Below, in pieces: positions 11,606 through 11,759 of a DNA stretch of 14,025 nucleotides. The first letter of the stretch is position 1, and each line of letters starts with the position of its first letter. A program made the position numbers and the translations under genes. This DNA comes from a virus. Taxonomy: Duplodnaviria > Heunggongvirae > Uroviricota > Caudoviricetes. The stretch lies in the IMG/VR virus record IMGVR_UViG_2600255005_000005; one strand, 5' to 3'. The notes beneath the pieces were generated by a model. That model saw only the letters and a list, made by a program, of their open reading frames with translations, made no database searches and had not been told where the DNA came from.

Positions 11606-11680
11606 TGGAGCGGGTAGCGGGAATCGAACCCGCATCATCAGCTTGGAAGGCTGAGGTAATAGCCATTATACGATACCCGC
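11606..11680 (-). tRNA. tRNA-Gly (anticodon UCC), phage-encoded
   Basis: Hand-folded cloverleaf of GCGGGTATCGTATAATGGCTATTACCTCAGCCTTCCAAGCTGATGATGCGGGTTCGATTCCCGCTACCCGCTCCA: 7-bp acceptor stem, anticodon stem TCAGC/GCTGA, loop CTTCCAA (anticodon TCC), T-stem GCGGG/CCCGC with TTCGATT loop, discriminator U, encoded CCA. Confidence 0.8.
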
Positions 11681-11683
11681 ATA

Positions 11684-11759
11684 TGGTGCCGACTACCGGA
11701 ATCGAACTGGTGACCTACTGATTACAAGTCAGTTGCTCTACCTACTGAGCTAAGTCGGC
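11684..11759 (-). tRNA. tRNA-Thr (anticodon UGU), phage-encoded
   Basis: Hand-folded cloverleaf of GCCGACTTAGCTCAGTAGGTAGAGCAACTGACTTGTAATCAGTAGGTCACCAGTTCGATTCCGGTAGTCGGCACCA: acceptor GCCGACT/AGTCGGC, D-stem GCTC/GAGC, anticodon loop CTTGTAA (TGT), T-loop TTCGATT with one A:C mismatch in the T-stem, discriminator A, encoded CCA. Separated from tRNA-Gly by 3 nt. Confidence 0.8.

Follow-up and report, generated by a model that had tools for sequence, protein, structure and literature searches.

An intact tRNA-Thr(UGU)/tRNA-Gly(UCC) cassette, resembling host thrU and glyT, between a Q-like gene and the holin gene of an Escherichia coli lambdoid prophage

Arrays of tRNA genes of the ileZ-argN-argO type are known in Stx phages such as 933W. 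Phage SfI has an Asn(GUU) and a Thr(UGU) tRNA in tandem after Q, as do Sf6, ST64T, PS3 and P21, and the SfI genome paper describes an ACA bias and makes for SfI the same codon-demand argument that we take up below (PMC3636060). Our literature search on ileZ/argN/argO and on phage-tRNA codon usage found nothing specific. Here, we analyzed a 14,025-nt stretch of viral DNA (the window), in which a first-pass annotation, made from the sequence alone, had read a pair of tRNA genes for Thr and Gly.

The window is an E. coli lambdoid prophage of the Rac/P21 type, with positions 1431-13917 showing 98-99.7% identity to prophages of complete E. coli genomes. On the minus strand, we found in order DUF1367, YbcO, a Q-like gene, the two tRNAs, a P21-type holin, YdfR, lysozyme and Rz, followed by trkG, a ParB_N protein, a TAGT glycosyltransferase, the small and large terminase, and the portal. 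The Q-like gene matched DUF1133 in Pfam (E 1e-106) and, marginally, PF06530 Phage_antitermQ (26.8 bits, just over the cut-off of 26); it is labelled "antitermination protein Q" in phage 683R6 and DUF1133 in RefSeq, and a sequence search of solved structures with its protein returned zero matches. A distance of 365 nt separates the tRNA genes from the upstream stop codon of this gene, and they lie ~780 nt upstream of the holin, all on the same strand and with the terminase and portal genes farther downstream, which bears out the earlier placement of the pair downstream of Q on the late strand. At the other end of the window, the portal gene (1496-2902, minus strand) adjoins with its 3' end the 5' part of an Rhs gene (PAAR/DUF6531/RHS-repeat; window 1-1479, plus strand), which forms a 492-aa ORF ending at 1479; positions 1-1430 are 93% identical to E. 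coli rhs genes. This junction, near 1431-1495, was found in no complete E. coli genome of the collection searched. Because related prophages carry on here with head genes, the prophage appears truncated and defective.

Two other features of the locus deserve mention in their own right. The TAGT glycosyltransferase (PF20691, E 4e-35; "GREB1-related protein" in RefSeq) is encoded just upstream of the terminase genes and overlaps the gene of the ParB_N-domain protein (5472-6404 and 6397-7188, respectively, both minus strand). The two may form a DNA-modification pair; a TET/JBP gene was absent from the window. The potassium-transporter gene trkG (7326-8783, minus strand) is a moron between the lysis and packaging genes, with a GC content of 0.38 against ~0.5 in its neighbors, and it uses ACA, GGA and ATA more than any other gene of the window.

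To call tRNA genes, we performed ARAGORN over the window and found exactly two, both on the minus strand (Table 1). The isotypes, Thr(tgt) and Gly(tcc), were those read earlier, and coordinates (11606-11759), strand and anticodons were likewise the same; Rfam agreed. Both genes matched RF00005 (gathering score 29) over model positions 1-71 of 71, untruncated, with E values of 6e-15 for Thr and 1e-12 for Gly, so the two cloverleaves with encoded CCA that had been folded by hand, 3 nt apart, stand as full-length matches. Read from the alignments, both tRNAs have a 7-nt anticodon loop with the anticodon at position 34, the D-loop GG, the T-loop GTTCGATTC (conserved TTCGA) and the encoded CCA. Rfam marked one non-canonical pair in the T-stem of tRNA-Thr, A52:C62, the A:C mismatch that had been noticed at first pass, and one in the D-stem of tRNA-Gly, U13:U22. 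The marks of a pseudo-tRNA, namely stems broken or conserved positions lost in comparison with the functional parent and a low detector score, were found in neither gene.

Table 1. Features of the tRNA locus in the window, listed in the direction of late transcription
Feature	Position	Strand	Description
Q-like late antiterminator gene (DUF1133 family)	12125..12667	(-)	Pfam
tR'-like intrinsic-terminator hairpin	12014..12045	(-)	80 nt beyond the stop codon of Q, with a U-run
Sigma-70-like promoter candidate	11836..11863	(-)	TTGCGA (11863-11858), 16 nt, TATCAT (11841-11836); 9/12 match in scan
5' leader hairpin	11763..11828	(-)	66 nt; ends 3 nt before the tRNA-Thr 5' end
tRNA-Thr(UGU) gene	11684..11759	(-)	76 nt, CCA encoded; ARAGORN, Rfam 73.8 bits
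Inter-tRNA spacer TAT	11681..11683	(-)	3 nt; signature of the phage cassette
tRNA-Gly(UCC) gene	11606..11680	(-)	75 nt, CCA encoded; ARAGORN, Rfam 65.6 bits
Strong intrinsic-terminator-like hairpin	11224..11243	(-)	Stem of 8 bp and a T8 run; lies beyond the tRNAs
P21-type holin gene (essD)	10614..10829	(-)	First lysis gene downstream of the cassette; Pfam PF04971, RefSeq annotation

We then compared both genes with their counterparts in E. coli K-12. The host gene thrU is established as functional and is the single-copy gene for tRNA-Thr4 (UGU), which decodes ACA/ACG; glyT is the single-copy gene for tRNA-Gly2 (UCC), which decodes GGA/GGG. The tRNA-Thr gene was identical to thrU at 76/76 positions, and the tRNA-Gly gene was identical to glyT at 73/75, differing only by C6>U and G67>A (index 66). 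Since the Thr sequences are identical, A52:C62 is native to the housekeeping tRNA-Thr4, and the Thr product would be indistinguishable from that of thrU. E. coli tRNA-Thr4 thus normally carries the A:C "mismatch", and the significance of the finding is mostly one of correct annotation. The U13:U22 mismatch of tRNA-Gly is also native, as it is present in K-12 glyT, and because positions 6 and 67 pair with each other, the change from C:G to U:A is compensatory and preserves the acceptor stem. The anticodon loops of both tRNAs are the same as those of the host genes. The identity elements for ThrRS are G1:C72, C2:G71, G35 and U36, all present in tRNA-Thr by its identity with thrU; those of the glyT type are the anticodon UCC, the discriminator U73 and the first three pairs of the acceptor stem, all kept in tRNA-Gly, and we would expect both tRNAs to be aminoacylated. 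Judged by these comparisons, both genes are intact, ordinary, near-exact copies of E. coli tRNA-Thr(UGU) and tRNA-Gly(UCC).

The host genes lie in the order thrU-tyrU-glyT-thrT-tufB in K-12, so that Thr(UGU) stands ahead of Gly(UCC) in the tufB operon as it does in the cassette. However, the host operon has tyrU and a 116-nt spacer between thrU and glyT, where the cassette has TAT, and neither thrT nor tufB follows the cassette, which sits in a prophage late region. Only the mature tRNA sequences match; the leader, promoter, spacer and 3' trailer of the cassette have no similarity to the host operon. Recent capture of the tufB operon with its flanks was rejected because flanks and spacers are dissimilar, and an origin from thrU...glyT via loss of tyrU is plausible but unproven.

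To determine how common the cassette is, we searched complete genomes with a 53-nt probe across Thr-TAT-Gly that cannot seed on the host locus. The junction was found in 876 of 5,426 complete E. coli genomes (16%), in 1,065 copies and up to 5 per genome; among the matches listed, these copies bear a tRNA-Thr and tRNA-Gly annotation (PGAP). The probe also matched 5 isolated-phage records, and the species-representative genomes with the junction were those of E. coli, E. albertii, E. ruysiae, Shigella flexneri, Citrobacter braakii and Enterobacter hormaechei. In IMG/VR, a pattern scan with C62 fixed by the pattern and A52 free to vary yielded at least 120 contigs. The Thr-Gly pair stood alone in at least 47 loci, formed the 3' end of arrays starting with an ileZ-like tRNA(CAU) and an argN-like tRNA in at least about 60, and came after tRNA-Asn and a decayed Thr copy in at least 5. 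The cassette lies upstream of lysis genes in phages 683R6, phi467, PhiR47_1, JLK-2012 and SerU-LTIIb; in 683R6, PhiR47_1 and JLK-2012, a gene annotated as Q precedes it. Two of these carriers are toxin phages, phi467 (Stx) and SerU-LTIIb (LT-II). The first-pass annotation had taken a Thr/Gly pair to be a different complement for a slot associated with Ile/Arg tRNAs. This had to be given up: Thr(UGU)-Gly(UCC) is a routine lambdoid-prophage cassette present in about 1 in 6 complete E. coli genomes, it often ends Ile/Arg-type arrays, and a Thr(UGU) tRNA after Q was already published (PMC3636060).

The jumbo Escherichia phages Ecwhy_1, BF17, CMSTMSU and fEgEco12 (350-386 kb, unrelated) carry 74 nt of tRNA-Thr at 100% identity, annotated as tRNA-Thr in one of the four records, which suggests that the host tRNA-Thr may have been captured repeatedly by different phage lineages. 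The junction was also present on a contig of a Corallococcus exercitus assembly (L140; 423 nt, coverage 0.67), and this myxobacterial-assembly copy is almost certainly enterobacterial contamination.

Next, we assessed conservation in 117 full IMG/VR cassettes among the matches listed, with pairwise identities calculated from 114 of them. Within these listed matches, the exact thrU sequence, which is that of the window, was the commonest Thr allele (71/117), and the exact Gly allele of the window was the second commonest (32/117). Both A52:C62 and U13:U22 were present in 117/117 of the cassettes listed, C62 being fixed by the search pattern. Pair 6:67 of tRNA-Gly was C:G in 63, U:A in 48, U:G in 4 and mismatched in 2 of the 117 copies listed; counted over copies among the matches listed, 50 of 73 changes to Gly stem pairs were double changes that preserve the pair. 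The TAT spacer was present in 113/117 of the listed copies. Pairwise identity in the 114 listed cassettes was ~96.6% for the tRNA bodies versus 38% for the downstream 100 nt, a pattern of bodies against flanks that excludes neutral decay for the alleles of the window. Such conservation of the tRNA bodies indicates either purifying selection or repeated conversion by the host gene, and it could be conversion, and not selection, that accounts for the identity to the host gene.

Several variants of the cassette were found. SerU-LTIIb has at the orthologous site (L004:3360-3435) a thrU-derived gene with anticodon UCU, annotated as tRNA-Arg, which differs from thrU by T16C, T20C, G24A, A31G and G35C; one of these five changes disrupts a D-stem pair. 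Among the 5,426 E. coli genomes, only strain 41 (NZ_CP076285.1) had the UCU variant, and a variant of the Thr gene with a UUU anticodon occurred in 1 of the 117 IMG/VR copies listed; we treated these as rare mutants and rejected anticodon-switched Thr relatives as a general phenomenon. In array-type loci (L009-L128; e.g., L006:3158-3234 in PhiR47_1), tRNA-Thr is preceded by an argN-like body starting with C1, whose anticodon ARAGORN gave as UUU, UCU, UAA or AAA or could not call, and which resembles a tRNA family in decay or with a drifting anticodon. In the Asn-Thr-Gly version (JLK-2012, L007:3085-3160, and at least 5 IMG/VR loci), the gene annotated as tRNA-Thr has 10-11 substitutions relative to thrU and two broken anticodon-stem pairs; it was not called by ARAGORN and is a probable pseudo-tRNA.

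To examine codon usage, we compared the window's phage and moron genes, 14 in number, with a 42-gene sample of K-12 (14,790 codons). The pair had been presumed to match the codon demands of late genes, such as ACA and GGA, and this held to the extent that ACA was used 15.1 versus 5.4 times per 1000 codons (2.8x, Fisher p 5e-8) and GGA 15.4 versus 6.0 times (2.5x, Fisher p 3e-7) in the phage genes versus the K-12 sample. Single genes contribute visibly: terL has 13 GGA among 35 Gly codons, the portal gene has 10 ACA, and trkG has 13 GGA and 10 ACA, equal to 26.8 GGA and 20.6 ACA per 1000. However, the codons with the highest enrichment over the K-12 sample were AGA (6.9x), AGG (6.7x) and ATA (6.1x), and the cassette has no tRNA for them. 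Because these three codons are more enriched and yet unserved, codon demand alone fails to predict a Thr-Gly pair; it is consistent with the cassette without singling it out.

We then looked for signals of expression. Transcription from the promoter candidate (Table 1) is predicted to start at ~11829-11831, at the base of the leader hairpin, which begins 7 nt after the promoter-like TATCAT. The pattern TTGnnn-16-TAnnAT was present in 32/32 leader sequences (24 distinct hairpins), with a spacing of exactly 16 nt and a distance of 6-8 nt to the hairpin, and it holds across 12 clusters of <80% identity with diverged spacers. The candidate is situated ~150 nt beyond the tR'-like hairpin. In array-type loci, TTGCAA-17-TATTAT is found 9 nt before the first tRNA, after a tR'-like terminator, and similar AACCCGCC..GGCGGGTTTT hairpins lie ahead of the tRNA promoter. 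On these comparative grounds, the cassette appears to carry its own conserved sigma-70-like promoter. It is less likely that the conserved promoter and hairpin are the Q-dependent late promoter itself, as a short leader and the tR'-like terminator sit directly after Q, and the promoter-hairpin unit is duplicated in SerU-LTIIb and found also downstream of stx in phi467. A promoter-like match inside the tRNAs (11692-11665) was dismissed as a chance effect of TATAAT in the Gly D-loop.

At the base of the leader hairpin is a 6-bp stem (GGUUCY/RGAACC); above it come a tandem G.A/A.G internal loop, another G/C stem and an otherwise variable loop within which the motif CGGKSAT is conserved. The RNAalifold consensus structure is the same hairpin. 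Among the 24 unique hairpins, basal-stem pair 6 covaries (UA 10, CG 10, UG 3), and the tandem internal loop (22/24 and 24/24) and the second stem are kept; a leader identical to that of the window (L090) folds at -29.7 kcal/mol. The loop in the window holds a 13-nt tandem duplication, GCTCGGTGATATC twice (11779-11804, minus strand), which doubles the CGGKSAT motif and is missing from 683R6 and most IMG/VR relatives, L090 being the one in which it is present. We performed an Rfam E-value search of 10800-12200, in which the leader hairpin was unmatched and, besides the tRNAs, only sub-threshold STnc370-like and STnc100-like matches were returned; no description of the leader element was found in the literature. 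Tentatively, and with rather low probability, the promoter and leader could form an element devoted to the regulation or processing of prophage tRNA operons, acting as a protein-binding switch, a 5'-end stabilizer or a leader sRNA released by RNase P.

The remaining structures of the interval frame the cassette. The STnc370-like match (12010-12076, minus strand; 30.4 bits against a gathering score of 54) lies immediately after Q and, at its end, overlaps the tR'-like hairpin, which is a candidate for the tR' that would end a short PR' leader RNA. Downstream of tRNA-Gly, there is a weak hairpin (11506-11485) and then an STnc100/PasD-like structured region (11214-11409, minus strand; 22 bits against a gathering score of 47, E 0.028), closed by the strong terminator-like hairpin of Table 1, which is likely to be the end of cassette transcripts in the lysogen. 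A 2026 preprint ties STnc100/PasD sRNAs to lambdoid prophages. The whole 931-nt region 11200-12130 had a folding z-score of -5.7.

In light of these results, the two genes are intact, functional-looking, phage-borne extra copies of thrU and glyT in the Q-to-holin interval, and we consider it probable that they raise the supply of two low-abundance tRNAs and are expressed by two routes. The Thr-TAT-Gly cassette would most likely boost the supply of two scarce tRNAs for ACA/GGA-rich, AT-richer phage and moron genes. From the comparative promoter, hairpin and terminator data, we infer one route in the lysogen and one by Q-dependent read-through. In the lysogen, transcription would begin at the cassette's own sigma-70-type promoter, downstream of the tR'-like terminator, giving a transcript that starts with the conserved leader hairpin, is freed of it by RNase P and stops at the downstream terminators. 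In the lytic cycle, Q-antiterminated read-through from the late promoter, together with template amplification, would add further expression. By either route, release of the tRNAs would fall to RNase P and 3' exonucleases, the CCA being already encoded. The cassette is another case of temperate phages bearing copies of scarce host tRNAs for A-ending codons. The lytic benefit is possibly moot in the prophage of the window because it is truncated, and the tRNA genes may persist there through host benefit or simply recent ancestry.

A less probable but still tenable reading is that the cassette acts by lysogenic conversion: constitutive expression from its own promoter would double the dose of two single-copy, scarce tRNAs and mainly aid a host with AT-rich acquired genes (trkG, toxins and other morons) rather than the late genes. 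The conservation of a promoter-like element downstream of the tR'-like terminator would suit such a role, as would the retention of an intact cassette in a truncated prophage, the tie to the toxin phages phi467 and SerU-LTIIb, and the position of trkG as the gene richest in ACA and GGA in the window. Lysogenic conversion overlaps the supply explanation that we prefer and is hard to tell apart from it, and the fixed late-operon position suits a lytic role equally. The promoter and leader hairpin provide a testable handle here, namely on whether prophage tRNAs are expressed in lysogens (host benefit) or only late in infection.

Two further readings seem very unlikely. Phage tRNAs can offset tRNA-targeting defences, and given this general precedent and a Gly allele unlike the host's in its acceptor stem, the extra copies might buffer the phage against systems that cleave or deplete tRNAs (anticodon nucleases, tRNA-acetylating toxins). 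However, both anticodon loops are those of the host, about half of the phage Gly copies among the matches listed have the host allele C6:G67, and the Thr copy cannot be a resistant variant because it is identical to the host tRNA. We know of no nuclease in E. coli specific for tRNA-Thr(UGU) or tRNA-Gly(UCC). The tRNAs might otherwise serve mainly as RNA-processing punctuation, with RNase P and RNase E cuts at the tRNAs parting the late mRNA from the leader and from sRNA-like segments, and with the tRNA products as a secondary outcome, a layout to which the structured leader upstream and the STnc100-like region with its terminator downstream would lend themselves; yet punctuation needs no exact conservation of anticodon, identity elements and whole tRNA bodies, and the downstream region has terminators of its own. 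Hardly credible is the view of the two genes as decaying or pseudo-tRNAs carried as neutral passengers, the direction in which the A:C pair had been read at first pass (decay or an atypical structure): the A:C and U:U pairs invite it, and a truly decayed Thr copy of the JLK-2012 type (11 substitutions) does exist elsewhere, but we rejected it at the sequence level since the scores are far over threshold, both mismatches occur in the host housekeeping genes and in 117/117 phage copies among the matches listed, the changed Gly pair is compensatory, and the window has common alleles of both genes.

Finally, we placed the locus beside the described systems. The Asn-Thr tRNAs of SfI, Sf6, ST64T, PS3 and P21 have their slot (Q to lysis/toxin genes), strand and proposed rare-codon role in common with the window; they include an Asn tRNA, whereas the cassette of the window is without Asn, Ile or Arg tRNA. 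The ileZ-argN-argO arrays of Stx phages share the same slot, strand and proposed role, but arrays of the ileZ/argN type have upstream tRNAs where the window has the hairpin leader, and many prophage arrays end in the Thr-Gly pair. The Thr-TAT-Gly junction itself is shared with vB_EcoS-683R6, phi467 (Stx), vB_EcoM-606R7, vB_EcoS-689R5, PhiR47_1 and SerU-LTIIb. In phi467 and PhiR47_1, tRNA-Gly has the host-type C6:G67 allele, unlike the U6:A67 of the window. vB_EcoS-683R6 has the whole Q-tRNA-holin-trkG-ParB-terminase layout in common with the window and is 91% identical to it over 778 nt around the tRNAs (window 11323-12100), though its tRNA-Gly carries C25>T, unlike that of the window. The promoter-plus-hairpin leader is the only element that is perhaps undescribed; the Thr-Gly cassette belongs to a class of lambdoid-prophage cargo that is already known and is annotated routinely.
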